Source: an uncultured Gemmatimonadales bacterium
GTDB taxonomy: Bacteria > Gemmatimonadota > Gemmatimonadetes > Gemmatimonadales > GWC2-71-9
Assembly: GCA_963739455.1 (NCBI GenBank)
Contig: CAVUAK010000001.1
Span: 544,001 to 608,000 of the forward strand
Reading direction: 5' to 3'
Length of the DNA: 64,000 nucleotides
Within the stretch, counting starts at the first letter, position 1. Each line of letters starts with the position of its first letter. Below, piece after piece: positions 6,736 through 35,012 of this stretch. The notes below the pieces were generated by a model. That model was not told the origin of the DNA, searched no databases, and was given only the letters and a program-made list of their open reading frames with translations. Position numbers and translations under genes: made by a program.

Positions 6736-6750
6736 CGGTCCTTCTCCCGG

Positions 6751-9602: not shown

Positions 9603-9681
9603 GTCCACCGTACCTGACCGTAAGCCCAAGTGATTGCAATGCTTTGAGATACGCTGCGGAAACAGGGGCACTGAATCGCAC

Positions 9682-10385: not shown

Positions 10386-11325
10386 CTACTTTTTTCCGCC
10401 GGCCTCGAGACGGATCACCGCCATCATCACGTCCCCGACTGCCTGCAGGCTCTGTGCGCTCAGCTTGTCGGGCGTGTCGTCGATGCTGTGCCAGAGGCTG
10501 TTGTTGCTGCCGTAGGTGAAGTCGATCACGTCGATCGCGCGGATGCCCGCCTGCTGCAGCGGCAGGTGGTCGTCCACCATGGTCTGGCCCTGGTGTGGCA
10601 ATGAACACCTTCGAGTAGCCCGCAATCTTCGCGGCATCCCACACCCGCTCCACCACCTCCGGAGCTCCCAGCAGCGAGTTGCCTTCCTGGTAGATCTGCA
10701 GGTCCCGGTCGCCGACCATGTCGAGCAGGACGGCGAACAGCGGCTTCGGACCAGGCGCCTGGTTCTTCGCGTAGTATCGCGCGCCCAGCAGGGTCTCGGT
10801 CGAGTCCTCGAAGCTGCCGTAGTCCTCTCCATCGACGAAGAGGAGGTCGACACCGATCGCAGGAGGTGTCTTCTTCAGCGCGTCGGCCATCCCCAGGAGT
10901 ACTGCAACCCCCGAGGCACCGTCATTCGCTCCCGCGATGGGCTTCTTGCGGTCCGCGGAGTCGGCTGACCTCTCGGCGATCGGGCGGGTATCCCAGTGCG
11001 TCAGGAAGAGAATGCGATCGGGTGCAGACGGGTTGAACCGCATCATCACGTTGCGAAGCGAGAGCTTCTCACCCTTTGCGGTGAAGTTGACCCAGTCCTG
11101 GATGTAGACGGAGTCCGCTGTCGCATGGGCCAGTGAGTCGAGCCAGGCCGCCATCGCCGCGTGCCCGGGCATCCCCGGCACCCGCGGGCCGAAGGCCACC
11201 TGGGTTTCGACGTTGCGCATCGCCGCCGCGCCGTCGAACTCCCGGGGCGGCGCGGGACGCTGCGACTCGCATGCACCCAGGAAGACGAGCAGGGCCAGCA
11301 ACCCGGTCAGTCGGTACTGCGTCAT
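10386..11325 (-). CDS. M28-family lipoprotein, glutaminyl-peptide cyclotransferase-like (frameshift near 10595)
   Basis: Lipobox FLGA|C; HWDTRP, GANDGASGV, DGEDYG, LLDMVG, DDHLP, WHSIDDT motifs as in zinc-dependent type II glutaminyl cyclases; ATG overlaps the sprA stop. Confidence 0.8.
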
Positions 11326-14300
11326 CGATAGTCCCCTGCAAAGAGCGACAGGTTGAGCGAAGCGACCAGGAACAGCTGGGAGTTCTTCCGGTCCAGGCTC
11401 CGGAAGTCGTTCACGGTATACCCGAGCTGAAGGCCCGCGGTCAGGGTGGAGATGATATCGGTATCGATACTGCCGCGATACTCCTGCCGCCGCGTGTCGT
11501 TGATGACCTGGCAATCCAGGCTGGCGGCCCGGAACAGGCACTGGGTGGCCTTGGACACGACTACGCTGAAGGATGAGCGTGCCAGCTTGCGCACCTTGCT
11601 CAATGCGCGCGGCAACGGGAACGCATAGGTCAGGCTGCCGTTCAGGTCGGCCTGGTCCAGCAGCGTCAGCGCCCCATTGCTGGCCGACTGCTGCTTGAGC
11701 AGGCTCAGGTTGGTGGCCAGCGCCGATGCCGTTGCGAAAGGTGATCCCGAGCTCGGGGGAGACGTTCCGCGACTGGTTGGACACGACCGACACGATGGTA
11801 TTGGTGACCGGCTGGGTGGTCGAGCCCTGTCGCTGCCGGATGGTGGCGCCGAACGACAGCAGTGCGAACGGACCCCGCGAGAAGGGATGGCTGAAGCGGA
11901 CCTGCCCGGACGGCCATTCCCTCTGGTAGATCACGGCGAGACGCTGCGCGCCGCCGATGGTCTGGTACCGGTCGGTGGCGATCTCGCTGTACAGGGCCGA
12001 GATGGTCAGGCCGAACCCGAAGTCGAGCCCGGTCGCCAGCTGGGTGGCCACCGTCTGCGTTGCGCCGAGAGACGGGTTTCCGTCCTGGGTCAGGAAGTTG
12101 GACAGGCCACCAAGTCCCAGGATGTAGCCGAGGGATGGCTGGAAGACCGCGAGGTCATAGGTCGACGTACGCGTCGTGCGGCGAGTCACGTCGAGCGGCC
12201 GGAAGCGGCGGATCACGTTGCCCACGCCCGAGGAATCGCCCAGGATCTGCCGGATTCCACGGGCATAGTCGATCGAGAATCCCCACTCATAGGCGCGCAG
12301 GTTGGAGAAGGTCTGCGGCAGGATGAAGGCGCCGGAGTCGCCGTCTGCCCGCACGAGCTGGCGGCTGTTGAGGTAGCGGCTGAGCACGAAGTTGCTGGTG
12401 GTCCCGAATCTCGGCCGGAACCAGGAGGCGATCCTGGGCGCGATGAGCAGGCTGGTGGCCGAGGTCCGGTCGCGCTCCACGCCGACGTCGACGCCGAGGA
12501 GATCCTGGCGCTCGGCCGTGGCCAGTCGCGCCTGCGGCAGTCGAGTCGCCGTACTGGCGCAGGTCGCGCGAGCTGGCCACGTCGGCGGTGAAGGTCAGCA
12601 TGCCGAGCGGCTGCCAGGTAAGGCCGGCCGAATTCCGCCACACGTAGTTGAGGGCCAGTGCGGGCGCCACCGACGCGTCGATGGGGCGCTCGACCGGCGA
12701 AACGTACGAGTAGAAGTAGGTCTGGTCGCGGGCCAGCCCGCTTCGCAGGCGAAGACTTGTCGGAAGGAGCGTATACGACGCCGTCTTGAGGCTGTTGCCG
12801 AAGTCGCTCTCCCGCATCCAGGTGGGGAGGCTGTTGACCAGGTTGTTCAGGTGGATCGGCGTGCCGCGGCGGCGTGACGGCGATGGTGTAGTTCAGGGCC
12901 GCGTTGTAGTTGTCCGTCGTCGTCCGGGAGAGCTCCGTCTGCCCTCGCCCGCGCACGTAGCCGCCGGTGAACGCCAGCGGATCGGCGAGCATGCGCATCA
13001 GCGGACGTGCTGCCGCGAGCCGAGCGCCGCACCAGCAGGCTGATGCTGCCGGTATTGGTGTTCGGCTTGCGCAGGCCCGGCAGGGCATCCGCGATGATGT
13101 CGCTGCCCGTGAGCAGCTGCGGGTCCACCTTCGTCGCGGCGTAGGTCAGGTTGACGGGAATGAGCAGGCCCACCGACGTCGGCAGGAAGCGATCGACGCG
13201 GATATTGCCCGACGTCACCAGCCCGCCGGTGGTACGGAAGCTTGGCTGGGCTCCGAGCTGGCGGAATTGCCCGTTGACGCTGGACATGAGGAAGGTGAAG
13301 TCGAATACGTCACCGGCCGCGAGCCGGGCGTCGAGTGCCCATGCCGTGCCCATGGTGGTGATCGGTTCCGAGAGCCGTACGTCGTCCACCCAGAGCTCCG
13401 TCGAGTCCGACACACCGGCCGCGACACGGATGATGCCGGTCGGACAGGCCCTGCGCCGCCGCAAGGTTGGGTGGATTCACGTTCGGGCTGAGGATGTGCA
13501 CGATGTACCCGCCCTGGCAGGCGACATACGCGAGGGGATCGCCACCGCACACATCCGCCCCTGATGGCGGCAGACCCTGTTCCACCTGCGACTCGATCTG
13601 GGCCCGGAGGTTGGCCCAGATCTGCAGGTCGACGGTCACCTCGGGGTTCCACGCCTCTTCCTCGCCGATGCTGTGCAGCGGTGTCTGGTACATGTAGAAG
13701 TTGTCGGCGTCGCTTTCCACCTTGATGTAGCCAAGCAGTCCGCCGGTGTCCCAGTCCGGCAGGTTGTGGCCACCGCGCATCCACACCCGCAGTTCGCCGA
13801 TACGACAGGAACCGCTGGTTGCCGGCCGGAAACCGGAAGTAGGCCTCCGCGCGCGTCCCCTGGGTCAGTTGCCGGGCGACGATTCGAAGCGACTTCTCGT
13901 CGATCTGGGCCCCGTTGTTCTTGGCGCCAGCGTTGGGATCCTGCAGGCCCACGATGACGCCGGGCGGCGGCACGTACCCGAGGTTCTTGTCGAGCGTCGA
14001 GACCACGGACACCACCACGCTGCCGGTGGGCTCGGCCGTCGAGCCGGCGATGCCCGCGATCGGCGCCGGTGCGCGCGCGAGCCAGGGTGCGCCGACGAAC
14101 GTCAGGCGCGAGAGGGCCAGGCGCGCCACGATGTCGTCGAGCGCCGGTGGCGCCACGAGCGTGATGCGAAGGGCCTGGACCAGCCGGATGTTCGGCGTGC
14201 CGATCACCGCGGTGGGCGTGCGCAGCGGAACGCGGTACAGGGTCCAGCCCGCGCCGGTGACCGGGTCCGTGACGCCCTTTCGCACCACGTACTGCGTGTC

Positions 14301-17300
14301 GGTCAGGCTGACCACGTACCGGTTGACGTTGTCATTGGGCCCCTGGGCATTGAGGATGTTGTCGCCGTTCAGGTCCTCCGTGTCGAGGAAGCCGTTGCCG
14401 CGCGTGCAGCGCGCGCTGAGGTCACCCCAGGGAAAGACCTGCACCGAGGTGCCGAGCACCGTCTGGCACAGCGGAAAGGCAGGGTCGATGTCCAGGTTGG
14501 GCAGCACCATCGGCGGGATATCGCCGAGGATGCCGATGTCGTCGTCCTGTGCGTTGAAGATGCCGTTCGACTGTCGCTCCGTGTTGAGCACGCCCGACGC
14601 CCACGTACTGGCGCCCCACGTAGGTGGAGTCGTTGCCCTCCACCCTGAGCGTGTCCGGTGCCACGCCCACCGCGTCCTCGCTGACCTGGCCCAGGTCGAA
14701 CACGAGGTTGACCCCGGCATTCTCCGCGCTCTTCGCGGCGTCGTTGTACAGCCAGAACTCGATGTAGGTGTTGGACGTGAAGTCGACGCCAACGGTGCTG
14801 AGGGCGGTCTGCATCGAGCGCCATCGCGGTGTGTTGGGGCGCGGTGGCTGGGTCCACTGTGACTTGTTGTTCTGCTGGACGACGCCGCCGGCGGTGTCGG
14901 CGTGCAGCGTCAGGTACATCACCGTCTCCGGTACCTGGGAGCGGCCCGCCGTCACGATGTTCGGGTCGATGTTCTCGGGAAAGAACTGCACGACGCCGCC
15001 GTCGGGCCCCGGAATCAGGTTCTGCCAGATCATCTGCACGGCGTCTGCCGTGTCGAACGTGGCGCCGAACCCGAGAGTCGGGTCAAGGCCGGCGGTGGAC
15101 TGCGGCACGCTGCCGTATTGCCACACGGCCGCGCCCAGGCTGACCGCCGTTCCCGATACGCCCTCGAATTCCTGGAGGTACGCCTGCCCGGTGCGGTTCG
15201 GGTCCGGGCGCGTGAGGGCAAACTCCCCGTTGATGTCGAGGAACGCCTCCGACGACCCGTTGCGGTTGGTGATGGAGCTGACCAGGCGGCTCAGCGCCGT
15301 GGGCCTGAAGTGCAGGTCGGTGTTGACGCCGGCCACAAGGTTGGCGCTGGCCTCGAAGCCCAGTGCCGGGCGCGCGAACGCCGAGCTCTCGCGCTGGTAG
15401 ATGCCGACGAAGTTGACGCCGCCGGTCCGGCCGAGGTCATAGTGCGTGGTGAGGCCGAAGATCGACGTCGGCGCCACGGCGAAGATGCCGCGCTCCTCGA
15501 ACTGCGCCGTGATCTGCGCCACCCCGCTGCCGAAGAGCGCCTCGGGATTGAGGAACGTGATCAACCCGGTTTCGTAGGCGATGGTGTAGTCGGTGCCGCG
15601 AAGCAGCAGCCGGCCGCTGAGGTAGAGTTTTTCCGAGCCCTCGAGGATCTGCAGCGCGTTCAGGTTGAGGGAGGAGCGGTCGCCGGCGCCGCTGGAGTTG
15701 TATCGCAGCCGGAACAGGAACTTGGTCGGCGGACCCTGCGAGAAGAGCAGGTACACTGGCGTCTGGTACAGCGAGTCGGTGAGTTCCGTCGGTCCCAGCA
15801 CGGCCGGGTTCGCGAACGGCTTGATGTTGGGAAACGCCAGGAACGATTCGTGAATGAGCAGGTCGGCCCCGGGGTCGCGCGCCCGCGGGAAGAGCCGGTT
15901 TTCCCAGTCGAAGGTGTTCTCGTCCGTGGGAATCGACAGGCCGAGTGCACTCAGGTACGTGGTGAAGCTCGACGGCGGGAGCGGCCGCTCCGAGCGGTTC
16001 ACCGAGAGGTCCACCTTGAGCGACGTCGGGTCGAGGTCCTGGCCGGCCACGCGGTAGAACTGCCGCATCTCGTGATGGAACGACGGCTGGTCGCTGCCCA
16101 CCAGCGGCTCGACCAGCATCCGGAGCGTGTCGACGGAGGCGCAGGTCGTGCCGGCTCCCGGCTTCGGCTGGCCGGGGAAGCTGCCGACGAACGTGCCGTC
16201 TTCCGTGACGTAGCTGATGGCGATGTAGTCGGCCCGGAGGTCCACCCGCTGGGACATGGCGATCCAGAGACCCGAGGGATCGGTGTAGTAGTCGGCGCCG
16301 AGCACCAGCAGCTGCCACGGCACCGGGCCGAAGGTCTTCCCCGCTGCTCCCTGGAAGGCGCAGGCCGGAATGCCACCGAGGTTCGGGTCCACGCCTCCCG
16401 TCAGCTGCGGCACGCGGTACCGGTACACGCGGAGCTGCGCCGGCCGGACGCTGGGTGACACCGTCAGCGTGTCGAGGCTCAGGGCATCGATGGCGGGATA
16501 GTGCGGCAGCGTGCGCGGATCGACCGTCCAGTAGAAGCGCCCGAACTCGAAGTCGAGGTCGCGCTGGCTGCGATCCTGCGGCGTCGCGACGGCCTGCCCG
16601 ATGGTGAAGGTCCGCTCGGCGATGGCACTGCCCTTCTGCGTCGCGGCCAGCACCTGCATCTGCAGTTGCCCGACCTCGAAGAGGGCGTTGACGCCGAAGT
16701 TGTTCGTGGGAATGGAAGCGGTGAGATAGCGCGAGGAAGGAGGCCGGAACACGACGGTGCCGACCTCGACGCGTCGGATCGGCTCGTCCTCGAGTCCCTC
16801 GTAGTACACCTGGATAATGTTACTATTCGTGAAGTCGCGCTGCGTGTCCCAGTCGACGTTGACACGAAGCCGCCGCCCGATCACGCCGCCGGAACGGATG
16901 GTCATCTGGTTGTCGAGCCGCGGCCCGTTGATGTCGCCGCGACAACCACTGGATGGATCACTGAGCGATGCCGGCGTGCATCGCAGGTTCTTGAGCCGGT
17001 CGGCGCGCAGCTCGAGCCGGATGTTTCCGTCGAGCGTCAGGTCCACGAGGTTGCGGTTGATCCCGAAGAGGCCCTTCCTCTGCAGCGCCGCCTCGGCCGA
17101 GTCAGCTGCCTCCTGACTCCCACCGTACAGGCTGATGAGCACCTGGTTGCTTGTCCTGGCCCCCTGGGAGGAATCGACGGCGGCGTTGAGGCTCGACTGC
17201 CATGCGTTCGCCGTGGCGCCAGGAAGCGGTCGTGGACCAAGGGCCCAGGGCTGCTGATACTGGGCCGGCGTTCGCAGCACGAGCGGTGGCGCTCCGAGCT

Positions 17301-17424
17301 TGGCGCTCACCCCGACCCCGGCCACCAGCGTCGTGTCGGCGGGCGGTGCAAGGGAATCGGCTTGCGCGGCAGCCAGGGCTGGACTGAGGGCGAGGACGCC
17401 AAGAGCCAGGAGAAGGCGCGTCAC
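11322..17424 (-). CDS. sprA: SprA/Sov-like T9SS outer-membrane translocon, about 2000 aa, broken by about 7 single-base frameshifts
   Basis: Joined ORFs 14422-17424, 13215-14792, 13310-13786, 12847-13464, 12287-12817, part of 10321-12480 and 11322-11615. SprA-like motifs YEGLEDEPIRRVEVG, GSEKLYLSGRLLLRGTDYTIAYETG.ITF, DTEDLNGDN.L, W.LYRVPL, ELWVDDVRLSE; signal peptide; beta-strand C-terminus. Confidence 0.8.
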
Positions 17425-23100: not shown

Positions 23101-23360
23101 TGGTAGCCGGAACCGGGCGTGATGTTCTCGAAGTTGTAGCGGCCGTTGCTGCGGGTGGTGGTGGTGAACGACTGGCCGGTCTGCAGGCTCTTGAGTTCGA
23201 CCCGGGCGGCATCGACCCCGGTGCCCGCGCCCTCAACTGAGATGGTGCCCTGAAGCGCAGCCGTGGTGACCCCCTGCGCGCTGACCCTGCGCGCGCCTGC
23301 CCCCAGCAGGGCCACGAGCACGATGGCCGCGAGGCCTGCCGGAGGGGTGCAGCGGTTCAT
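20148..23360 (-). CDS. TonB-dependent receptor, Oar-like, with N-terminal carboxypeptidase-regulatory-like domain
   Basis: Signal peptide VSA|Q; LP..GRNF.DL, N.QIDG..NND.FG, SIEAV.EFQV, G.F.GG..N.ITKSGTN.F.G; ends QLGAKWRFGF. Confidence 0.9.
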   Translation of the reverse strand: MNRCTPPAGLAAIVLVALLGAGARRVSAQGVTTAALQGTISVEGAGTGVDAARVELKSLQTGQSFTTTTRSNGRYNFENITPGSGYQLTVRAIGYLPSVQQGLTLGLGTRQTRDVALKSTVVQLQEIEVAASADNPLLDAGRTGPQQVLGDTAIQGLPLQGRNFNDLISATPQAVGTSIAGNNNRYNNLQIDGGVNNDLFGLAASGVPGGQSGARAISIEAVSEFQVMVAPYDVRQGNFAGGMVNGITKSGTNRFIGSAFVFRQSKNLAGYRDDPTFTSLSIWQYGGTLGGPILTDKVHFFVSADVQSRTSAFASPFNLTGNDATDLANTGFTNSTVNEFADILGGYGITNSGDGSTPNVDNPLMNLFGKLTFNTGESSQLELSYNYADADLGSYIRNPTGVAITGRMRDGWQLSNSGYTQVGKVNTLRARWVAEFGGGLSNEFLTGYQLVRDSRDLPEEVPLILAAVGNIGAATSWLAAGAERFSQTNSLDQNIFSFADNLSFGTGAHRLTVGTQNEFFSFDNAFFQASIGVWSFSSLDSLAAGTPSAFQRRIPTPLQPKGPIALIGAQQFGLYAQDQWSPSERVSFTVGIRADIPLINSPRTNPALVNDPNLPINTGDFPNANVLWSPRLGFNWDVSGQARSIVRGGVGVFSGRPPYVWLANSFTNTGADYVQVTCTGADTPDFTVDPAAQPSACRTGTPTAVAGEVDYFDPNFKYPQNFRASLGFDQRLPGGFILTLDGYYSKQVNQIYIQDTNIPQAPTFSSEGRAIYGTFNAANGAATVTRRTTAVTNAVYHTNTSLGQTLAGTIQVHKSFSNRFALDAAYTLSRTTDQISATSSQAFSNYQFASIGTGTIADRAVTTSTFDVPSKVTLTGMVSLPLGFDFSVFYTGFSGTPYGWVINSGPGGTRGDANADGIAGNDLVFVPGNPGQITLTNPAAYDSLQNFISSQKCLAASRGAMLERNSCRNPWQNYFNLRVGWTTPQVKGSGIELTLDLFNFLNFLSSNWGLYKEVSAFEEGPAFLSVAGYDNANNRPIYRFTQPAVVERTVYSQRQSRWTMQLGAKWRFGF

Positions 23361-23635: not shown

Positions 23636-24595
23636 ATGACTCAGGAAAAACCCACGATTCTCGCTGACCTCGTCACGCTCACCAAGCCGCGGATCATTTC
23701 GCTCCTGCTGGTGACGACGGTGGCCCCGATGTTCATGACCGACCGCGGGCTGCCTTCAGCAGCACTCGTCCTCTGGGTGGTGGTTGCCGGTTACCTGATG
23801 GCGGGCGGCGCCAACGCGATCAACATGTGGTTCGACAGGGATATCGACGACCGGATGACGCGCACGCGCCTCCGCCCCATCCCGTCGGGGCGCATCACCC
23901 CGGGGCAGGGACTGTTCTTCGGCGTGGCCCTGGGCGCCATCGCCTTCGTGATCTTCTGGTACCAGGTCAACCCGCTGAGTGCCTGGCTCGCGCTGAGTGG
24001 GCTGCTCTTCTACGTGTTCATCTACACCATGCTGCTCAAGCGGAAGACGGCGCAGAATATCGTCATCGGCGGCGCGGCAGGCGCGTTCCCTCCCCTGGTG
24101 GGCTGGGCCGCCGTGACAGGGCGCCTGGACCTCGCGGCCATCTACCTCTTCGCCATCATCTTCTACTGGACGCCCCCGCACTTCTGGGCGCTCGCCCTCA
24201 TCAAGCAGGGGGAGTACGCCAAGGCCGGGGTGCCGATGATGCCGGTTGTGAAGGGAGAGGCGCGAACGAAGTGGGAAATGCTCATCTATACGCTGCTGCT
24301 GCTGCCGCTGACCATCATGCCGGCGGTGTTCGGGGCGCTTGGTCCCTTCTACCTCGTGGCCGCGTTGCTCCTGGGCGGCCGGTTGCTCTGGTACTGCATT
24401 CTACTGCTGCGCGAGGCGGGGGTGACGCCGACCGCATGGAAGATGTATCGCTATTCCCTGCTCTACCTGGCGCTGCTCTTCCTCGCCATGGGCATCGACC
24501 GCTACCTGCCGCGCAGTGCGCACCAGCCGGTGGCGCCTGAAGTGGTGATCCTGCGCCAGACCGGCGACGTGACAGGGATCAAGGCGGCTCAGTAG
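23636..24595 (+). CDS. cyoE: Protoheme IX farnesyltransferase (heme o synthase)
   Basis: LTKPRIISLL, NMWFDRDIDDRMTRTRLRPIPSG, NIVIGGAAGAFPPLVGW, FYWTPPHFWALA. Confidence 0.95.
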   Translation: MTQEKPTILADLVTLTKPRIISLLLVTTVAPMFMTDRGLPSAALVLWVVVAGYLMAGGANAINMWFDRDIDDRMTRTRLRPIPSGRITPGQGLFFGVALGAIAFVIFWYQVNPLSAWLALSGLLFYVFIYTMLLKRKTAQNIVIGGAAGAFPPLVGWAAVTGRLDLAAIYLFAIIFYWTPPHFWALALIKQGEYAKAGVPMMPVVKGEARTKWEMLIYTLLLLPLTIMPAVFGALGPFYLVAALLLGGRLLWYCILLLREAGVTPTAWKMYRYSLLYLALLFLAMGIDRYLPRSAHQPVAPEVVILRQTGDVTGIKAAQ

Positions 24596-26016
24596 GACAG
24601 ATACTGGTTGCTGTAGAAGTCCACGCTCAGGAAGCGCCCCGCGTCGCGTACACCGTCCTCGGTGAGGACGTCCCGCCAGTCAGGCTGCCTTGGTTCCTTC
24701 AAGTCGCCTGCAATCATCAGGCGCCACTGCCCGACGCCGGTCCGGTCGGCAAAGATGTACCACAGTCCCTGGTCCGGGTAATTCCATACTTCGTATGGCG
24801 GTGCCTTCTGCACCTGCGCCCGGTGCAGCACCGAGGGCGCGACACCATTCTTGGCAAAGATGCGCCCGCGGTCGGTTTTCCAGCCGGGCACGTTCCGTTC
24901 CTTGAATTCCTTGTTGGCGAGCGCGATCGCGGCATAGAACTGCTCGCGGGCCTCATTGGTGGCGGTGCCCTTGTTGGGATCGCGTGACTGCCAGAAGTCG
25001 GTGAGGTAGCGCCTCTTTCCGTCCTCGCTGAGCGACTTGTTCCAGACCTTGAGCTCTGCCGGCGTGGCGATGTAGTACAAGGGCGCGAACGCGGAATCGA
25101 GTCCCTCGACCGACATGTACTTGAAGTAGCCTTCGTCCGTCTGCCGCTCGACCTTGATGCGCGCCACCCCGCGCTGCAGGGTGGTATCGAGCGAGGCCAT
25201 GGTCATCGGTGCTGAACGGTCCACCGAACGGGCCCCGAGCTGGAGCAGCACCTTCAGCTGGTACCTGCCCTGCGGAAGCCCCTCGAGGTTGAGGCGCCCC
25301 TTCAGCATGCCGCCGGACGCCGCAACCTTCACCGGCGTGTTGGGGGTCTGGAACACCGCCTTGCCCGCCTCATCGACCACCTCGACTGCCATGGTTCCCG
25401 ACTCTTCCGTGCCGTCGTTGTAGGCCTCGAGAACGTAGTACGCCTCGGTGTGCCCCGAGTCGGGCGCAAGTCGCAGGACGGCGGCGGGATTGAAGAGGGT
25501 GTTCCCCTTCCTGACTTCGCCTGGTCTCGGCACCGTATCGCCAGTGCCGGCGATTCTCATGGCGGATGCAAGCGTGAGGTCGGAAGCGTCCGGCCGGCCC
25601 TTGAACGCCTCCAGTGACAGGGTGCTCGAGAGGACCTTGGCCGAGACCGAGTCGGTGACGTCGACGGCGACTGTGTAGGTACCCGGCGCGACCGCAAAAT
25701 CGAGCATCTCGATGCCATAGGCGCCCGGGATGCGCGGGTCCCCGGGTATCCGGGTGCGCCACGAGTCGGTGTGCAGGGTAATTCCTGCCTGGTCGGCCAC
25801 CTTCACCGCGACGAGGTACGACACGCCCTGCGCACCCGGCTCCATGATCGACATCGGAACCTGGATGAGCACGCGAACACGCGTCTGGCCGCCGTTTTCC
25901 GGGCGGAAGGTGCGTACGGCGCGAAGGGAGAGGCCTTCGGCGGTCTGGGCCAGCAGAACGGGGACCTGAAGGCACAGCGTCAGCAGGGCCAGAGCGAGCT
26001 GGCTCCGGAATCGCAC
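24589..26016 (-). CDS. Secreted GWxTD-domain protein
   Basis: Signal peptide LLA|Q; FWQSRDP...NEAREQFY...AN..F...GWKTDRGRIF..YEVWNY. Confidence 0.85.
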   Translation of the reverse strand: MRFRSQLALALLTLCLQVPVLLAQTAEGLSLRAVRTFRPENGGQTRVRVLIQVPMSIMEPGAQGVSYLVAVKVADQAGITLHTDSWRTRIPGDPRIPGAYGIEMLDFAVAPGTYTVAVDVTDSVSAKVLSSTLSLEAFKGRPDASDLTLASAMRIAGTGDTVPRPGEVRKGNTLFNPAAVLRLAPDSGHTEAYYVLEAYNDGTEESGTMAVEVVDEAGKAVFQTPNTPVKVAASGGMLKGRLNLEGLPQGRYQLKVLLQLGARSVDRSAPMTMASLDTTLQRGVARIKVERQTDEGYFKYMSVEGLDSAFAPLYYIATPAELKVWNKSLSEDGKRRYLTDFWQSRDPNKGTATNEAREQFYAAIALANKEFKERNVPGWKTDRGRIFAKNGVAPSVLHRAQVQKAPPYEVWNYPDQGLWYIFADRTGVGQWRLMIAGDLKEPRQPDWRDVLTEDGVRDAGRFLSVDFYSNQYLSY

Positions 26017-26122
26017 GTTGATTGCTCCGCGGGAACGGTAATTCGGGGGCGGCCAGCTCCGGCCGGTGCCAACTCGCCCTGTGAACCTGCCTCCGGAGAC
26101 GACAGGCAGGCCCTGAAAGACA

Positions 26123-26150
26123 CAGGCGGGCCCCGTGAGGGGCCCGCCTG
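26123..26150 (-). terminator. Strong hairpin after the PorV-like gene
   Basis: CAGGCGGGCCCC-gtga-GGGGCCCGCCTG perfect 12-bp stem. Confidence 0.65.
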
Positions 26151-26168
26151 CCGGAGAGCCAACCCGGT

Positions 26169-27290
26169 TCAGAAGCCGACGCTAAACGTGAAGAAGTTCG
26201 TTGGTCCGAGTGTGCCCATGTACCGGTAGGCATAGTCGAGGCCGATGCTGAACTTGGCTGCGGTCTGGTAGAAGAGGCCGCCACCGAAAGCCAAACCCTG
26301 CAGGTTCTCCTCGTCCGCGACTGAGCTCGGGAGCTCGGTCGGGGTGAGGTTGTTGGCCGGCTGGTAGCTGTAGCTGGCCCGGAGCGCCGCGCCGAAGCCC
26401 GACCCGCCGAGATGCTTGAAGTCTACTTCCGAGCCAACACCGAAGGACGCCTTGTTGCTGATCTGCTGGTTGAAGTCGGCGATCAGCGTCCAGCGCGTAT
26501 CGGTCTTTGAGATCAGGTCGTAACCCAGGGCCACCTTGAAGGTGGTCGGGAGGTTGAACGCCTTCGTGCTCAACTCACCCGGCTGCGGGTTGGTCGGCAC
26601 GGTGGGAACCCCCGGCACCGAGTCACGCGGCACCTGGACGATCAGTGCGTCGCCGCCATAACTGATCGCAGAACCGAGGTTCGTGAGGGTGAAGGAGAAC
26701 TGGATCGGCCGACCGCCCAGCCGTGAGTGGAAGTTCGTGCCGAAGTCGACAGCAAACGCGCTGCCGGTGGCGCCACCCAGGTTGTCGAACACGAACTTCG
26801 CCGTGATACCCGCACTGAAGCGGTCGGAGAAGTTCTGGGCGTAGGTGAGGCCGCCGAAGGTTTCGCTCACCGAGTACACCGAGCCGGTGCCATCGGGTTG
26901 CTCGACCGTGTACACCGGCTGGTCACCGAACCCGAAGGTGCCGAACTGGAGGCCGAACGCCTTGGACCGCCCGCCGAACGGGAACGAGAGGCCGGCCCAG
27001 GCATAGTTGGTGTTGGCGACGTAATCGTACGCGCTGGCCGAGAACCCGCTGGTTCGCTGCAAGGCGATACCGGCAGGGTTGTAGTACAGCGCGCTGACGT
27101 CGTTCACGATCGCGGAAAACGAGGTGCCGAGTGCCGCGCCGCGTGCGGAGGCGCCAAGCAGGAGGAATTCCGCCGAGGTGGTGCCGTATGACGTGTTGTC
27201 GCTGCCGGTGTTCTGTGCCGCGAGTAGCGTCGGGCTCCCGATGAACAGCATCCCCGCCAGTGCCCAGCGAAGTCTTTGTGAATCACGCAT
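26169..27290 (-). CDS. PorV/PorQ-family (FadL-like) outer-membrane beta-barrel
   Basis: Signal peptide LAA|Q; GTTSAEFLLLGASARGAALG..FSA..NDVSALYYNPAG N-terminal signature; LPTTFKVALG; C-terminal FSVGF. Confidence 0.85.
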   Translation of the reverse strand: MRDSQRLRWALAGMLFIGSPTLLAAQNTGSDNTSYGTTSAEFLLLGASARGAALGTSFSAIVNDVSALYYNPAGIALQRTSGFSASAYDYVANTNYAWAGLSFPFGGRSKAFGLQFGTFGFGDQPVYTVEQPDGTGSVYSVSETFGGLTYAQNFSDRFSAGITAKFVFDNLGGATGSAFAVDFGTNFHSRLGGRPIQFSFTLTNLGSAISYGGDALIVQVPRDSVPGVPTVPTNPQPGELSTKAFNLPTTFKVALGYDLISKTDTRWTLIADFNQQISNKASFGVGSEVDFKHLGGSGFGAALRASYSYQPANNLTPTELPSSVADEENLQGLAFGGGLFYQTAAKFSIGLDYAYRYMGTLGPTNFFTFSVGF

Positions 27291-27356
27291 GATCTTTCGA
27301 TCTCCTAGGGTAGGTGGTGGGGCCCCGTTCGGGACCCCACTCACCGGGCCAGTGGA

Positions 27357-30300
27357 CTACTGGGCGAAGTTCACCACCGTAAAGCGGCCGACCCTTCGGG
27401 CGTCGCCGGCTTCGATCATATAGAAGTACACACCCGACGCGACAACCTGGTTGTTACGGTTGCGGAGATTCCAGGCTTCCGTACCGCTGAAGTCGGTCGA
27501 GTTGTGTTCGATCATCTGCACCAGGATGCCGCTGGACGTGTAGATGCGGATGATCGCCTGGGTAGGCAGGTTCACGAACTGGAGCACCTTCGCTTCCGTC
27601 GTGGCCTCGTACCCGTTAGTCACGTAGTACGGGTCCGGCACCGTGTGCACCCGGAGCAGGTCCCGGTTGGTGGTCGCCAACGCAGTGGTCGGTTCAGTGA
27701 CGGAGAACCTGACCTGCAGGCCCGGGATGCCGGGCGAGCGCACCTGCGGCGTGTACGCGTAGCCGGTTGGGGTGGTGCCGGCAGCCAGTGTTCCGGCCGT
27801 CGCACTGCCCGCGGACGTCCTGACGATTCCGGCGTAGGTCCGCAGGGTCCACTTCGTTCCCGCTGCCGGCATGGCACCGCCGGTCAACTGGAAGATGTAG
27901 CGCTCGCCGTTGACGTACAGGCCGATTCCCTGGCCCGTCGTGCCCGCCGCCGAGAAGTTGGTGCTGACGTTGCCGACAGTCGCCGTGTTGACGTATGGCA
28001 CGACGTCATTCGGGTCGGTCGGTCCCAGGGCACCCACTTCGTTGGCCCAGAACTCGGCGATGTTTGCGGCGTAGTTGAAGTCCGTCCAGGTGACGACGCC
28101 ATCGCCGTCAGCATCGGTCACGAAGCCCCATGTGGCTTCGGCCTCCGGGTTGAACTTCACGTCGACATCGTTCGAGAGATCGCGGACGGATTCCATCGTG
28201 CCGCCCGGACCCCAGGTGAACTGGACGTCAGCTTCGCGCGAGAGTCCGGCGAAGGCATAACCCCAGAACTGGATCGTTCCGTTGTTCGTGGACGGCCCAG
28301 GCGTGGTCGGGTTCAGCGGATCACGCTGGACGTGGTGGATCGGCGCCCAGACCGTATCGACGCCGGGGAGCCCGCCACCGACCTTGATGCTGACGGCCGG
28401 GTGGTTCAGCGTCTCGTTGTCCCCGGCGAACCAGCGGGAGCCGCCGGCAGATACCGAGGTCTGGCAGTTCGTCGGCGCGGCACCGCAGAGAGCAGCGGTG
28501 TTGTTGTTGACCAACCCTCGCCGAGCGGCCTGACCCTCGAAGCTGCTGAACTGGATGTACTGTCGCATGGCGATGCCGACAGCGGCGCTTCCCGTCAACG
28601 TGCCGGGAATGCCGTAGGTGGCAGCCGCGGTGGGATCAATGTTGACCGGCTGCGCGCCCAGCTGGGCGGTGCCTGTCGCGATTCCATCGAAGCTGCTCCA
28701 GATCGGCCAGAGCGCCACCGTCGTGAACTTCGTTTCTACGCCGTCCTTCACGAACGTCACGTAGAAGATGTAGCACGTGCCGGTGGAGCCGGCGATGGAG
28801 TTGAACACCCCATTGCACGACGGGTTCCCGCCCCACAGCGCCCGCACGGAATCGATGGTCGCCGTCAGGCTCAGCGCCGGCAGCAGCGCCGGGATCAGCG
28901 GAGCAAAGGCACCACTCACGCCGTTGGTTGCCGGCGGCGTGCCGCTGAAGCGGCCAGTCGCGGGGTCGATGCTGAACGGTGCATCGACATTGAGCGCGGT
29001 GCCCGCCGTGCCGTAGATGCCGGACACGAGCGTCGGCGCCTGCACGTTGGAACCAGCGACGCTCGGCGTCACCGGCTTGGCCACGCGGGGCGACTCGAGG
29101 CTGGACGGGCCCGACTGGAAGCTGTTGATGTCGAACGCCGTCACCGAGTAGAAGTAGCGGAAGTTGTTCTTCGGCTCACGGTCGGTGTACCCGAACGGTA
29201 CGCCGGTGTCGGCCAGGGGCGGATAGCCGCCGTTGCTGGCTGACGTGAGTGCGGTGTCAGCGTTGCCGACAACCAGCGCGCAGGCGAACGAGACGCAGTC
29301 GGCTCCGGGAACCTGTCCCGGGTTGACTACGACGCGAGACGCCGAGCCGAGCTTGACCTGGATGAACTGTCCGGTCAGCGGGTACGAGGTGGAGGTCGTC
29401 GCCGAGACGCCGCTGAACTGCACGTAGTTGAAGGCGACCGGGCAGTCGAGCGTGACACCCAGCTCCGGGGCGCAGGTACCGACCGGGTTGATCTGGCCAC
29501 TGAAGTCGGCCATCTCGGTGCCGGAGTAGTCGAACTGGGCCACCAGCGTCAGCGAGCCCGAGTTGTTCACGCGCCCGCGATAGATCCGGTAGCCCTCGAC
29601 GTCGAACTGACGATAGTTCGGGTCGTAGAGCACGTTCGGCTCGGTCGGCGTGCCGGGGTTGCTGGCGACCGCGAAGTACGGGTCGCCGCTCACCTCGGAA
29701 GATGACGGCTGCCACACGATGGACACCTGGTTGTCGCCGGGGATCAGGTAGAAGTTCGGCGACTGGGGCGCGAACGGGAGCAGGAATCCGTTGTCGAAGA
29801 TGACCTGCGCCGTGAGCGCCTTGTTGAGCAGTGAGCCCGGGATGGTGCGGAACTCACTCTGCTCGACGCCGTTGTCGGCGTTGATGTCGGTGTAGCCGTT
29901 GAAGCCGGTCAGCGAGTCCACCTGGTTTGCACCCAGGCTCAGCAGCGACACATCGGTCAACCGGACCGGGTTGCCCGGGGTGACGTCGGTGCTTGCCGTC
30001 GGGGCGAAGCCCGGGATGGCGACCGGTGCGGCGAAGACGTACGCCACCACGATGCTGCCGAAGCCGCCCGGCGCCAACTGGAGCGACGTCGACGACTGGT
30101 AGAACCGCGCGTCCGCTGCGGACGGGTTGATGAAGCAGATGCCCACCGCAAAGCCACCCGCAACGTTGCAGGCCTGGTCACCCTGTGACGGGTCCAGGTT
30201 GCCGGAGAGGTAGCGGAACAGCTGGAACACGTTGGCCGGGTCACGGAAGCCCGTGGCCGAGTTGATCGTGTTGGAGAAGAGCTGGATCTCGCCGGCGCCC

Positions 30301-31334
30301 GTCGGGCTCCGGAGGTACTTCACGCCCACGAAGCCCGGGCCACCGAAGAACGGGGGGCCCCAGATGGCGGGGTTGTCGTACTGCTCACCGCTCGTCGGAT
30401 CGAAGGTGAAGGTGTGCTCGTAGCAGAATCCGAGGGCGAACGGGATGTTCACCGAGCAGTAGTTCGAGCCTGCAGCGGAGACGTCCATGTCCGCGGCGAA
30501 GGCCGAGAACAAGCTGTCGATCGTGTAACCGCCAGCCGGAAGGTTCACGCGGAACCTCGAGCTGTTGCTGGACACGAAGTCCCGGCCGAGCTGCTGCATC
30601 GTCGGCCGGATCGCGGGACGGACGCCGGCGTAGGCCGTCGGGTCGCTGGCCGTCACGTTGTAGAACGAGAACGTGAAGTAGACGATGTCTTCGTTGCCGG
30701 TCGGGTAGTTCCAGCCCAGGCCGCGTGACTCGACGGCGACGCCCAGCGGGTGCGGGCGTCCGGCGATCAGGGTGGAGTTGCCGTCCCAGGTCACGAACCA
30801 GACGTCACCCTGCGACGCCGAGTTGATGCCGCGGAGCACCGGGTTGTAGAAGTTGTCGGCTTCGTTGATCTCGACCGGTACCCGCGCCGCTTCCGGCCAC
30901 GCGCCGGCATCGGCAGGGTTCTGGAAGTTGTAGATCGGCTCGACGCCGTCGCCGTGCTCCGTCGTACCCTTGGGGTCGAAGAAGAAGGCACCGGAGACGT
31001 CGCCGTCCCACGCACCGCCCGGGTTCAGCACCTTGCCGGCAACCTGCAGGCCCGAGTTGAACACGAACTGGTTGCCGGTGCCCTTCGGCCAGAACCCGCC
31101 GCCGATGGTCGACGAGTTCGTGGAGTCAACGCCGATGTTGCCCTTGGACGAACTGAGTCCGAGGTACACCCGGTTGACGGTCATGGCTCCCAGGGTGCGG
31201 GCGAACAGCCGGAACCCGCGCGGCCGCGCGCCCGGCTCGGGCTTCGCAGCGGCGGTCGCGGGAATCAGTGCTGCCAACGCCAGCGCCAGCAGTCCTCCCG
31301 CCGCGAGGCTTCTCGAACGCAACAAGACTTTCAT
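27357..31334 (-). CDS. Large secreted protein (about 1325 aa) with FN3-like region and T9SS type-A-like C-terminal domain
   Basis: Signal peptide; FN3-like PGDNQVSIVW...VEGYRIYR...YFYSVTAFD; Ca-binding-like DINADNGV and DADGDGVV; C-terminus VHTVPDPY...QFVNLP..AIIRIYTSSG.LV..I.H...WNLRN.NNQ.VASGVYFY.IE....GRFTVV. Confidence 0.8.
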   Translation of the reverse strand: MKVLLRSRSLAAGGLLALALAALIPATAAAKPEPGARPRGFRLFARTLGAMTVNRVYLGLSSSKGNIGVDSTNSSTIGGGFWPKGTGNQFVFNSGLQVAGKVLNPGGAWDGDVSGAFFFDPKGTTEHGDGVEPIYNFQNPADAGAWPEAARVPVEINEADNFYNPVLRGINSASQGDVWFVTWDGNSTLIAGRPHPLGVAVESRGLGWNYPTGNEDIVYFTFSFYNVTASDPTAYAGVRPAIRPTMQQLGRDFVSSNSSRFRVNLPAGGYTIDSLFSAFAADMDVSAAGSNYCSVNIPFALGFCYEHTFTFDPTSGEQYDNPAIWGPPFFGGPGFVGVKYLRSPTGAGEIQLFSNTINSATGFRDPANVFQLFRYLSGNLDPSQGDQACNVAGGFAVGICFINPSAADARFYQSSTSLQLAPGGFGSIVVAYVFAAPVAIPGFAPTASTDVTPGNPVRLTDVSLLSLGANQVDSLTGFNGYTDINADNGVEQSEFRTIPGSLLNKALTAQVIFDNGFLLPFAPQSPNFYLIPGDNQVSIVWQPSSSEVSGDPYFAVASNPGTPTEPNVLYDPNYRQFDVEGYRIYRGRVNNSGSLTLVAQFDYSGTEMADFSGQINPVGTCAPELGVTLDCPVAFNYVQFSGVSATTSTSYPLTGQFIQVKLGSASRVVVNPGQVPGADCVSFACALVVGNADTALTSASNGGYPPLADTGVPFGYTDREPKNNFRYFYSVTAFDINSFQSGPSSLESPRVAKPVTPSVAGSNVQAPTLVSGIYGTAGTALNVDAPFSIDPATGRFSGTPPATNGVSGAFAPLIPALLPALSLTATIDSVRALWGGNPSCNGVFNSIAGSTGTCYIFYVTFVKDGVETKFTTVALWPIWSSFDGIATGTAQLGAQPVNIDPTAAATYGIPGTLTGSAAVGIAMRQYIQFSSFEGQAARRGLVNNNTAALCGAAPTNCQTSVSAGGSRWFAGDNETLNHPAVSIKVGGGLPGVDTVWAPIHHVQRDPLNPTTPGPSTNNGTIQFWGYAFAGLSREADVQFTWGPGGTMESVRDLSNDVDVKFNPEAEATWGFVTDADGDGVVTWTDFNYAANIAEFWANEVGALGPTDPNDVVPYVNTATVGNVSTNFSAAGTTGQGIGLYVNGERYIFQLTGGAMPAAGTKWTLRTYAGIVRTSAGSATAGTLAAGTTPTGYAYTPQVRSPGIPGLQVRFSVTEPTTALATTNRDLLRVHTVPDPYYVTNGYEATTEAKVLQFVNLPTQAIIRIYTSSGILVQMIEHNSTDFSGTEAWNLRNRNNQVVASGVYFYMIEAGDARRVGRFTVVNFAQ

Positions 31335-31412
31335 TGCTGTCCTCTCAGAGTAGAAGCGCAACCGGGCCCGACCGAACCAGCGTACGGTTCGGCCGAGCCG
31401 GAGTGCACCACG

Positions 31413-34400
31413 TTAGAAAGTGAACTCCACGCCGAGCCGTAGCTGCTGTTCCCGGCCCCGTAGAAGAAGGTCGGTGCAGCCTGGTTCGCGTAGTACAGTG
31501 CGTTTGAAGCGTTCAGCTGCTCCGCCAGCGTGTAGATGTGGTCGCCGTTGCCGTAGCGCTCTTCCGCCCGGATCAGGTAGACGCAGTTCGGAACGGACGG
31601 CGTGCGTTGCTCGCGTTGACCCAGTCGCCGCAGCCGCTCGCTGCCGCACCACCGAAGCGTCAGGTTCATCGCGCCGGTGTCCTCGTCGAGGACGCCGTTG
31701 CCAAGGGCTTCGTTCGCAGTTGCGGGTGCTGTCCGCCGAGAAGTTCTGCTGCTGCTCGATCTGGCTCGTGATGCTGTTCGTGACGACGTACTGCTGAATG
31801 CGTGTTCGTGAAGCCAAGGATGTTCCGGGCATCCAGATAGAGGGACATCTGGCTCCGGCCGAGGTTGAAGCCCTTCACGAAGCGCATGTCGAACTGCTTG
31901 AACGTCGGCAGGCGCTGGCTGTTGAGGCCGTTGGTGAAGCCGCCGCGGGCGCAGACCTGGCCCGACAGGGTCGACTGGTTGCCGTCGGCCACACCGCAGG
32001 CCGTGTAGGCCGTGCCGCTGGCGAACCGGAAGAGGGCGAACACCTGGAAGTTCTGGAAGATCGAGCCCACCGTCGAGCCGGAGTGCCACCCGTTCGGGAA
32101 GGTGAGCTGCCAGGCTGCCGATCAGCTGGTGCGGGCGCGACAGCGCGACCGGGGCAATGGCCTGCGGGGGCGGCTGGTTGCCGCCGGTAACCTGGTTCAC
32201 GACCCGCGACCCGAAGTTGATGTAGGTGAACGGGTCCGTGCCGGTGTTGCTGCGCGCTCGTGTAGCTGTACCCGAGCGTGCCGTTGAACAACTGGCCGAA
32301 ACGACGGTTCAACCGCAGGTCGAGACCCTTGGTGTTGCCGAAGTCGGAGTTCGTGATGAGGCGCAGGTCCTGGTTCTGGGTGGTGAGCGGGTCGAACGAG
32401 CTCACCAGTCGGCCGGCCGCGTTCGCGAGGTTGTCGCGGTTGTAGGCCGACACGTCCAGCACCATGTCGTCGTTGAAGGCGTGCTGGATGCCGAACTCGA
32501 AGATGATCGACTTGCCGTAGTCGACGTTCTGGCCATACACGTTGTTCGTGTTGGTGACGCTGATATCGGTGTTGATGCCGCTCAGCGACAGCGCGAAGTC
32601 CGGCGACTGGACCGACTGCGCGTACGAGAGGCGGAAGTTGGTCCGCTCGGTGACCGGGAAGGCCACCTGCACGCGCGGGCTGATGTAGTCGAACGACTCG
32701 TCGGCCACATACAGGTCCGTCGGATCCTCGCCCGGGCTGGAGGCCGGGTTGGTCGAGATACGCGGGAAGCCCGTCCAGCGGCTCGCGTTGGTGTTGAAGT
32801 AGTCGTACCGGATGCCGAGCTGCACCACCACGTCGCCGATGTCGAGACGGTCCTGGATGAATGCGGCGTAGCGGGTCGGCTTCGCCTGCCAGTAGTCGGA
32901 GAACGCCTGGCTGGAGATGAGCGCCGAGTAGCTCGTCATGTCGTACTTGAAGTACTCGCCGCCAACCTGGATACGGTTGTAGCGATCGAGCTGCCAGTCG
33001 AGGGTGGCGTTCGCGACGTACCGGTTCTCCTTGTACAGCTGGAGCCGGGCGCTGTTGAGGCCGCCGTCCGGGAACGTCTGCGCCAGACCGTAGGGGTTGG
33101 AGCGGAACGTGACCTGCGGCTGGTGCGCGTTGACCTCGTCGGCGTTGTTGAGGTCGATGGCGCCGAGGCAGGTCTTCTCGTTACGAATGAAGCAATCGAG
33201 CTTGGTCAGCGTCTGGCCCGCCCACCTCGTACGTCTGGTCGAGGAAGTCGAAGTCGTACTGCAGCGGGATCGGGCTGAAGTAGAAGCCCAGCGTTCCGGT
33301 GCCCGGGCCGCCATCCGCGAACGGGCTCTGGATGAAGCGGTCGGTCTGGTAGGACAGGTTCACGTCGAGTGCCAGGGCGCGCTCAGCCGACTTGGACAGG
33401 TTCTGCGTCCAGTTGGCGGTGTAGACGGCGTTCTGGGCACGGAAACCGGTCTGCCTGGTTCGCGAAGACGCCAGGGTTGAGCTGGTTGAAGTAGTTGAAG
33501 TTCTTCCCCTGGTTCTGGCTGCCGAAGCCGCCGATGCGCAACCGTGAGCCGTTGCCGTAGGAGAAGTTGAGGTTGGCGCCGACCTGCGCCGCCGAGAAGC
33601 TGGCGTTCGGGAGCCGCGCACCATTGCAGCCCTGGCCGTTGTTGTCGGCGATGGCGGCGTTGGTGCTGCCGTTGAACGTGTCGCAGCTACCGGTGTAGAT
33701 CGAGTACTGGTTGACGTCCACCTGCGAGAAGCTGCCGTCAGCATTCTCGTTGGTGACCGTCGTGTCCACGCCCGACGTGACGAAGACTGGCGCGTCCTGC
33801 CGGCCCTTGCCCGACCGGACGGACTCGTTGCCCTCGCCGACGAGGTTGACGTTGAACGTCAGCCCCTTGAGAATGAGCGGTCCGCTCAGGGTGCCCTCGA
33901 ACCGGTTGTAGCCCATGCCGATCGTCTTGCCGAACACTTCGTCGGTCTCGGCGCGCAACTGGCCGGCAAACTTGCTGCCGCCTGTGCGCGACGTGATGTT
34001 GACGATACCGGCCTGTGCGTTGCCGTACTGTGCCGCCGCGGCGCCCGTCGTGACCGAGACTTCCTCGAAGCCGTTGGTCGCGAAGGCAACGCCCGACGTG
34101 CTCACGCCGCCGCCGTCGTTGGCCGCGTTGGAGGCGTTGGTACCGGCCGACACGAAGCCGTTGCCACGGTTGCCCGGCTGGACCGAGACGCCGTCGACGT
34201 AGAACGCCGCTTCGTCGTTACGGCCGCCGCGAATGGAGATGGCGGACCCGTTGGCGCCTTCCGCCACGACACCCGGCTGCAGCTGCAGCACCTGGCCGAC
34301 GCGGTCAACCGGCAGGTTCTCCGTGAACTCGCCGTCGATGCGCTGCTTCGTCGTGACCTCGTCGCGCGGCACCAGGGCGTTTGCGGCCGTGGTCACCGTC

Positions 34401-34765
34401 AGCGAGTCGAGTACGACGGTCGACTTCTCGAGCTGGATGTCCTGCGAGATGGTCTGTCCAGCGAGGATCTTGATGCCCTCGACCTCGGACTTCTTGAAGC
34501 CGATGAAGGCGCCGCGAATCGCGACAGTGCCGGCAGGAATGTTGTTGATGAAGTAGTAGCCCTGAGCATTTGTGAGCGCACTGAATGCGGTGCCCACAAT
34601 GAACACCTGGGCGCTCTGGATCGGCGCACCCGCCTGATCCCGCACTCTGCCTTCGAGCTTACCAGTCTGTGCCGCTAGCGCACCGGCGCTGGCGAACAAC
34701 AGCACTGCCGACAACGCGAACCGTCTCGCGAGTCGGACGAAGGCGCTGACTCCGCTTTGTGTCAT
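31413..34765 (-). CDS. TonB-dependent receptor (about 1100 aa) with several frameshifts
   Basis: Signal peptide LAA|Q; carboxypeptidase-regulatory-like N-domain; plug IRGGRNDEAAFYVDG...AQYGNAQAGIVNI; barrel AAFIQDRLD, LGIRYDYF, ISPRV; ends LRLGVEFTF; AGGAGG RBS. Confidence 0.85.
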
Positions 34766-34983
34766 AGAAGCCTTCCTCCTGGGCGTAAACCGCGCTGCTA
34801 AAACCTTCATCAATGCGATCACCGCTGGAGCGGGCGCTCCGGAGCATTCGTTATGGCACACGAATACGCCTCAGCGGCGCACTGCGCTGCCTCGCGCTAG
34901 CGCGCGAAGCGTTCATCCTTGGGTCGAGAGACTGCATGGGGTTGTGCAACGGAACTCCGTCCTGGCCGGGACGGCGCGAGACA

Positions 34984-35012
34984 AGTATGAAGCGCGGTAC
35001 CGTCGGTGTCAA
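34984..35012 (-). promoter_or_regulatory. Near-consensus sigma70 promoter for the TBDR-CTD protein-PorV operon
   Basis: Minus strand TTGACA-N17-CATACT, about 220 bp upstream of the receptor ATG. Confidence 0.6.

Follow-up and report, generated by a model that had tools for sequence, protein, structure and literature searches.

In the SusC/SusD systems of Bacteroides, SusD acts as a lid on its transporter, and in the system for type IX secretion (T9SS) GldL and GldM are needed for the release of cargo. Other described arrangements join a surface protein to an outer-membrane barrel. PorZ and PorU keep their C-terminal domains (CTDs) on PorQ and PorV, and the genes of type B cargo are clustered with those of the cognate PorP/SprF barrels, the CTD being probably uncleaved (PMC10202324); in BamG-BamH, which belongs to the BAM complex of Bacteroidota, a FadL/PorV-like barrel of 14 strands is the platform for a surface protein (PMC12578637). 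The starch operon of Melioribacter roseus (Mros0762-0758) encodes a GH13 amylase, a TonB transporter, a 'SusD', a 'SusE' and a secreted CBM48 amylase (PMC3534657). As for the distribution of type IX secretion, it was detected in Bacteroidetes only according to one account (PMC4793230) and may occur in Gemmatimonadetes according to another (PMC11285876), Caldithrix is described as lacking gliding machinery (PMC5317091), and SprA is spread across the phyla of the Fibrobacterota-Chlorobiota-Bacteroidota (FCB) group (PMC12611786). Here we describe a cassette of three genes, for a TonB-dependent transporter, a very large protein with a CTD and a barrel of the PorV/PorQ family, which lies in a 64,000-nucleotide stretch (the window) of the genome of an uncultured Gemmatimonadales bacterium (GenBank assembly GCA_963739455.1; 3.6-Mb, 83.7% complete; called G000 here, with the window at positions 544001-608000 of its contig C1). 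The trio is real and conserved over a wide range, a new and apparently undescribed arrangement of known kinds of parts, and we propose with moderate confidence that its products make up a cognate unit for uptake at the outer membrane, with the large protein serving as surface capture partner of the transporter.

Like the SusC/SusD utilisomes, the cassette has a TonB-dependent transporter with a CarboxypepD-like extension and the gene of a cognate partner directly next to it, and some of the distant trios have LacI regulators, hydrolases, binding modules and sugar transporters at their flanks, as SusC/SusD loci do. Its transporter, however, falls far under the SusC cut-off (85.6 of 368 bits), and the partner, of 1100-1350 amino acids (aa), differs from SusD in having no SusD domain and mostly no lipobox, together with a T9SS CTD and a barrel of its own. 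With PorZ-PorQ and PorU-PorV, pairs in the attachment complex of the Porphyromonas gingivalis T9SS, it shares a type-A CTD predicted to be retained on a cognate PorV-family barrel, leaning towards PorQ, but the body of the large protein is unrelated to PorZ and PorU (matches cover the last 60-100 residues only), a transporter is co-encoded, genomes without PorU are among the carriers, and the barrel stays below the equivalog cut-offs of both PorQ and PorV. As in type B cargo with PorP/SprF, cargo and anchoring barrel are encoded side by side, whereas here the barrel comes from the PorV/PorQ family, the structure of the CTD is type-A-like and the first gene of the cluster is that of a transporter. 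The barrel resembles that of BamG-BamH in being of a PorV-like kind and the predicted platform for a surface protein, yet it has no link to bamA, its partner is not a lipoprotein and its distribution is patchy rather than universal. Finally, the gene layout of the M. roseus starch operon recurs in two of the distant loci, L141 and L158, in which the genes in the middle are those of the large CTD protein and of the barrel, whereas the paper names SusD and SusE and describes neither a CTD nor a PorV-like barrel. We predict that Mros0760 and Mros0759 are such a pair; no M. roseus name stood among the 120 matches listed. The initial annotation knew of no functional description of the architecture, and none of the trio was found in the literature searched, where subscription papers were mostly outside coverage, nor was any found of the GWxTD protein encoded beside it.

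Gene order and distribution of the trio

Open reading frame (ORF) and family analysis of the window shows four co-oriented genes on the minus strand, encoding the transporter, the large protein, the barrel and a GWxTD protein (Table 1), in the place and orientation that the initial annotation had given. The transporter comprises a signal peptide, a CarboxypepD-like N-terminal extension, a plug and a barrel; the CarboxypepD_reg-like domain and the Plug exceed their Pfam cut-offs in the window and the PF00593 barrel does so in an intact orthologue (L001), which upholds the identity first assigned to the gene, although frameshifts in it had gone unmentioned. The SusC score cited above, for model TIGR04056, was the best among six intact transporters, and the closest intact orthologue of the window transporter gave no match to this model at E 1e-4. 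On these sequence criteria the transporter is not a member of the SusC/RagA family, in which case a missing SusD is in itself ordinary. The gene that follows it is indeed that of the large protein and, as had been noted earlier, no SusD-like gene comes directly after the transporter in the window; domain searches found no SusD domain in the large protein, and SusD is present elsewhere in two of five genomes examined. Among solved structures, the best relatives of the transporter align only at the plug side or over short stretches. Matches to a regular expression for the TonB box, seen in 32 of 58 transporters, were not taken as evidence.

Table 1. Features of the locus, in window coordinates
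Feature	Coordinates	Strand	Evidence
sigma70-type promoter candidate, TTGACA-17-CATACT	34984..35012	-	10/12 consensus matches
TonB-dependent transporter, ~1115 aa when intact, frameshifted in assembly	31413..34765	-	Pfam matches
1325-aa secreted protein	27357..31334	-	AlphaFold2 models, fold searches, alignments
Outer-membrane barrel of the PorV/PorQ family, 373 aa, predicted cognate CTD anchor	26169..27290	-	NF033709, PDB profile match, complex model
GWxTD-domain protein, 475 aa, lineage-limited	24589..26016	-	TIGR04514 + PF20094 over cut-off
SprA/Sov translocon homologue, ~2030 codons, frameshifted in assembly	11322..17424	-	TIGR04189 on three pieces

Conservation of this order was followed in two sets, the 79 best Gemmatimonadota loci from a total of 536 related stretches on GTDB contigs, with counts on loci that have room for the neighbour, and the best 80 of 243 distant metagenome loci, which come from 3 of 64 collection parts and were picked on the large protein alone, with the distant relatives named below as queries. 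The transporter gene lies directly upstream of the large gene in 72/73 Gemmatimonadota and 56/57 distant loci, and the barrel gene directly downstream in 72/72 and 62/64, respectively. The same trio is carried by the Rhodothermus marinus plasmid pRMAR01 (RMAR_RS14120-14115-14110; homology probability 99.7), and relatives that combine the N-terminal domain (N-domain) with a CTD occur in KSB1, Calditrichaeota, Ignavibacteria, Melioribacteraceae, Cyclonatronaceae and Bacteroidota, the cultured carriers being R. marinus DSM 4252 (RMAR_RS14115) and Ignavibacterium album (IALB_0487). Within the phylum, all 11 paralogues fetched from family f10 (seven genomes) lie between their own transporter and barrel genes and complete four-gene copies exist in families f9 and f12, where two further fetched copies are cut by contig ends or have no neighbours, while the f11 copies are stand-alone fusions. 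Conservation of the trio across Gemmatimonadota and other FCB lineages, which the initial annotation left to a synteny survey, is thus observed. The N-domain of the large protein was found in 54 of 131 genomes of the phylum by a single query and in 55 by profile; all 55 are among the 106 genomes with sprA, and none of the 25 sprA-negative genomes carries it, in agreement with the co-occurrence expected earlier. A role of the large protein as core T9SS component was rejected, since it is absent from families f2 (0/29) and f7 (0/14), which mostly have sprA.

The fourth gene behaves differently. Its product has a signal peptide, an N-terminal Ig (immunoglobulin)-like part by weak matches and a GWxTD domain (TIGR04514, 87.8 bits against a cut-off of 28; PF20094, 41.8 against 26.9) that was matched in 46/46 aligned members, whereas its profile retrieved nothing in the PDB and, in the Atlas, no family other than its own. 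The GWxTD gene is adjacent in 69/70 Gemmatimonadota loci but in 0/46 distant ones; its identity stands, its membership of the conserved core and a status as obligatory fourth part were rejected, and it is a lineage-limited addition to the trio. Further GWxTD-domain genes, some in tandem, are found at about 673700-681000, 864000-865600 and 1979900-1983800 of G000:C1, and a gene for a putative Ig-like lipoprotein follows GWxTD in 42 related loci (for example L034:15502-16803), not in the window. A second family of large CTD proteins of 1300-1400 aa was also observed in 10/131 genomes (L104, L105, L111, L113-L116), with the same transporter-large-barrel order and lacking both GWxTD and the DxD motif discussed below; full-length profiles of both families align at the CTD only, and their N-domains align at a probability of 92.5.

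The sigma70-like promoter reported upstream of the transporter is present as a motif, but on its own the match is at chance level (2 sites against 1.1 +/- 1.1 in shuffles). A similar motif recurs at most 450 bases 5' of the transporter, mostly at 200-250 bases, in 56 of 61 related loci, a count made without shuffle control. Contigs from two RNA runs match parts of the window, mostly below 95% identity, so that they demonstrate neither an expression level nor co-transcription.

The large protein, its barrel and type IX secretion

The hydrophobic N-terminus of the large protein reads as a Sec signal peptide on inspection of the sequence. AlphaFold2 modelled residues 38-775 and 752-1325 with pLDDT (predicted local distance difference test) values of 90.4 and 90.9, revealing a supersandwich (~45-520), a beta-rich region (~520-760), a more variable middle (~760-1215) and a CTD (~1220-1325). 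In fold searches with the model, the N-domain (the first ~480 residues) is a beta-supersandwich as in the N-terminal domains of GH15, GH94 and GH116 enzymes (GH, glycoside hydrolase), the best match being a GH15/GH94 N-terminal supersandwich with Z 18.7 and a root-mean-square deviation (rmsd) of 2.8 over 233 aligned residues. No catalytic (alpha/alpha)6 barrel of GH type was found, as the matches cover only the N-terminal sandwich of their targets and both half-models are beta-rich, and neither Pfam, PDB sequence nor fold searches retrieved any catalytic domain. By sequence, the large protein matched no solved structure. The middle regions (~520-1215) gave no fold match of their own when searched within the half-models and not as single domains, for which reason the missing match is no evidence of a new fold. 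The N-domain family is unannotated; at 50% identity it comprises 2885 clusters (E up to 1e-10), a number that acidic repeats in the profile may inflate. The domain was also seen standing alone, in fusion with FG-GAP repeats, ASPIC and a CTD, or in a 461-aa PEGA-domain protein (L084, L085, L094, L098, L099, L100).

At the other end, the C-terminus folds as a T9SS Ig-like CTD sandwich, with the CTDs of PorZ, PorU, mirolase and NucA as top matches, which supports the type-A-CTD-like end read earlier from the sequence. The similarity is highest to PorZ (Z 11.9) and PorU (Z 10.0), with rmsd values of 2.2 and 2.4, respectively, over 89 aligned residues in each case, and lower to the CTDs of cleaved cargo (Z 6.7-8.0). 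The TIGR04183 CTD model scored 17.2 bits on the last ~100 residues against a cut-off of 23, and a PorZ model matched the C-terminus in 35 of the 36 large proteins scanned. A lipobox was seen in 8/117 and 0/118 large proteins, and the surface partner is likely anchored by protein rather than lipid.

The barrel belongs to the PorV/PorQ family (NF033709, 142 bits against a cut-off of 90) and its profile matches PorV, the sole solved structure found, at E 1e-10. Both equivalog models remain under their cut-offs, PorQ with 71.9 against 220 and PorV with 47.8 against 250, and in 6/6 operon barrels the score to PorQ is the higher one. The family assignment of the initial annotation therefore holds, whereas the orthology with PorV does not. 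A function as general PorV shuttle was rejected on orthology, as a separate gene family adjoins porU in the distant classes, and a BamG-like barrel was unsupported, the profile having found only PorV among solved structures. A predicted complex of the CTD with the barrel scored 0.90, the best of three controls giving 0.00, and docking on the own barrel, foreseen in the initial annotation, is thus reproduced in the model. The mark for such scores was reached by 116 of 157 solved pairs and 2 of 215 mismatched ones, the runs share at least 86% of their contacts, and the partners have pLDDT of at least 77. PorV-CTD complexes are already solved, so the predictor may have drawn on them, and the docking indicates likeness more than proof. 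The modelled interface falls on conserved columns, at 0.87 against 0.63 in the CTD and 0.76 against 0.69 in the barrel.

A homologue of sprA, which had been expected about 10 kb away, has its start at 17424, at a distance of 9.9 kb from where the large gene ends; it is frameshifted in the assembly, is the single copy in the genome and reaches 269 bits in its first piece (TIGR04189, cut-off 200). The distance between sprA and the cassette is likewise no more than about 25 kb in at least 23 other genomes. Full-length PorU exceeded its cut-off in 0/116 genomes of the window's class, compared with 14/15 of the distant classes, which serve as internal control, and GldM and GldN matched in 0/131 genomes and GldL exceeded its cut-off in 0/131, in searches without positive control that did not include GldK. 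A separate porV, found beside porU in the distant classes and near era and prfB-lysS in Gemmatimonadetes (L121-L126), is present in 26/60 genomes of the window's family; in five out of five near-complete genomes from the clade of the window its syntenic site lacks it, as does the interval between era and the regulator in G000 (contig C4, 6322-10261), and the cassette barrel is the only strong PorV/PorQ-family member found in this porV-less clade. Among the 34 family genomes without porV, the large protein occurs in 24 of the 26 with sprA (one of the two misses is cut by a contig end) and in none of the eight without it, compared with 11 of the 25 genomes that have both porV and sprA. The porV-less genomes are kin and probably go back to one loss event. 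That the large protein is the only CTD protein of the genome was rejected, for another CTD-like gene, small and conserved, was found directly upstream of clpB (~140 aa, signal peptide plus CTD/FlgD-like domain; G000:C1:2322554-2322994, plus strand; also L127:2740-3280), and short CTD-like ORFs akin to it match in other genomes of the phylum.

Two further observations concern the surroundings. A second outer-membrane barrel of 1070 aa, intact and with a CarboxypepD-like N-terminus (PF25183), is encoded between cassette and sprA (20148-23360, minus strand), a position kept in seven related loci. On the same strand, sprA is followed by genes for an M28 peptidase and for the type IV pilus proteins pilB, pilT and pilC (11322-17424, 5524-9839).

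Substrate context and competing explanations

The flanks of 50 distant loci were scanned with the first 600 residues of 89 out of 136 candidate ORFs, those dropped being mostly opposite-strand or redundant. A glycoside hydrolase or a carbohydrate-binding module was found in 17/50 loci, in 21/50 after a looser rescan of eight proteins, and 26/50 result when LacI regulators, sugar-binding proteins and sodium symporters are added. This glycan context in distant relatives supports the uptake function, and there, from gene content, the substrate is probably a glycan. For the genome of the window, a glycan substrate is possible but falls slightly short of an even call. Some distant trios are followed by amidase, SpoIID-like or M23 genes (L165, L181, L182, L183, L185, L191, L195, L080), which suggests from sequence a second substrate class, peptidoglycan, for a subset of them. 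The conserved neighbours in Gemmatimonadota are an M24 peptidase, haem synthases, an ABC (ATP-binding cassette) transporter and an Ig-like lipoprotein.

Several points weigh against an uptake unit. The tally of glycan genes (17-26/50 loci) is a raw count with no background rate, peptidoglycan-hydrolase-like neighbours stand in their place in 7/50 distant loci, and no glycan genes were found around the window or the 79 Gemmatimonadota loci, where 14 of 21 multi-locus neighbour clusters were scanned. In its best matches the supersandwich has no catalytic role, and YidC and mutarotases show the fold as well, so that it does not demonstrate sugar binding; moreover, there are relatives of the N-domain that are fused to FG-GAP repeats and have neither a transporter nor a barrel. 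The TIGR04183 cut-off is passed by only 5/36 homologues. The genomes compared are kin, hence the co-occurrence counts overstate their independence. Finally, the transporter gene is frameshifted in this assembly, its ORF being broken across several frames by ten extra bases from 33455 to 31443, in the 3' 2 kb. True decay of transporter and sprA in this genome would agree with the frameshifts in both genes, and no reads of the source sample were found among sequencing runs (the best run contained 0.17 of the words). The breaks are, however, single extra bases without excess of first- or second-position changes: codon-position substitutions are 72/49/188 in the broken part of the transporter and 48/33/116 in the intact part, an unchanged third-position bias. 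The extra bases are missing from a closely related contig, orthologues that are 80-90% identical are unbroken, and a single transporter ORF of at least 1000 aa was seen in 59 of 65 related loci. Given the bias kept, the clean contig and the long ORFs in relatives, the extra bases of the transporter are most likely assembly errors, and pseudogenes appear extremely improbable.

The remaining alternatives assign other functions to the same genes. The large protein could be an adhesin or structural surface protein anchored by the barrel, with a transporter that is merely co-expressed or aids its assembly or export, much as Oar of Myxococcus, a TonB-dependent transporter, is required for protein secretion. 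The missing catalytic domain, the FG-GAP and ASPIC domains of stand-alone relatives, which are typical of surface proteins, the Gemmatimonadota copies without nearby glycan genes and a strong, constitutive-looking promoter fit this possibility, but many distant trios lie between LacI regulators, hydrolases and sugar transporters and every paralogous trio retains its own transporter, and we regard an adhesin as unlikely. Still less credit can be given to a surface enzyme that would process a polymer in an acidic pocket, with the transporter importing the product. D282, D284, D408 and R410 are invariant in 120/120 close homologues, the three aspartates are kept in 19/19 diverse N-domains, and the supersandwich fold also hosts the active sites of mutarotases. 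In the distant set (n=200), on the other hand, position 282 is D in 92 sequences, G in 38 and unaligned in 66, and 284 varies; the motif is missing from the second large family, which is distantly homologous and shares the gene order, glycan loci encode dedicated hydrolases beside the trio, and a metal site accounts for the conserved residues equally well. It is also very unlikely that the transporter feeds TonB energy to a motor-less SprA, the cassette being then a secretion accessory and not an importer. The missing GldL, GldM and GldN, the proximity of cassette and sprA, and the near-restriction of sprA to cassette carriers once the general porV is lost would fit such a role. However, 51 sprA-positive genomes have no member of the large-protein family (including 20 in f2 and 13 in f7) and only some of them have the second family, which indicates that SprA does not generally need the trio, and the motor searches carry the limits stated above.

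Possible role of the cassette

An uptake unit thus remains the preferred explanation, and its parts differ in strength. We infer that the large protein is located at the surface and binds to the transporter; its export and retention there are very probable, and it is probably a functional partner of the transporter. Export by Sec, for which signal peptides are seen, would come first, and the large protein would then pass through SprA, as its CTD and the strict co-occurrence indicate. In a class where no PorU was found, its CTD would stay uncleaved and docked on its own barrel, as modelled, and the fixed gene pairing argues that it would be placed beside the transporter. The supersandwich or the middle region may bind the substrate, with import by TonB energy, and the large protein would thereby do the job of SusD in Bacteroides. 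A wider proposal, which we consider rather doubtful, is that across the FCB group the cassette is the alternative to SusC/SusD and, for the clade of the window, the reason why type IX secretion survives at all. SprA and one barrel, with no sortase, general PorV, recognisable motor or rings, would be kept there for essentially one giant cargo that acts as transporter lid, TonB or the GWxTD protein being the energiser.

If the trio is an uptake unit, it would explain how substrate is captured at the glycan loci without SusD of Ignavibacteria, Calditrichota, KSB1, Rhodothermota, Balneolota and relatives of the Gemmatimonadota, and it would provide a marker for glycan loci missed by searches based on SusC/SusD. 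Since R. marinus and I. album are cultured carriers, the cassette is directly testable. Moreover, type IX secretion would be tied directly to the building of an importer, and the clade of the window offers a natural minimal T9SS in which to ask whether SprA works without the GldL/M motor and PorU.

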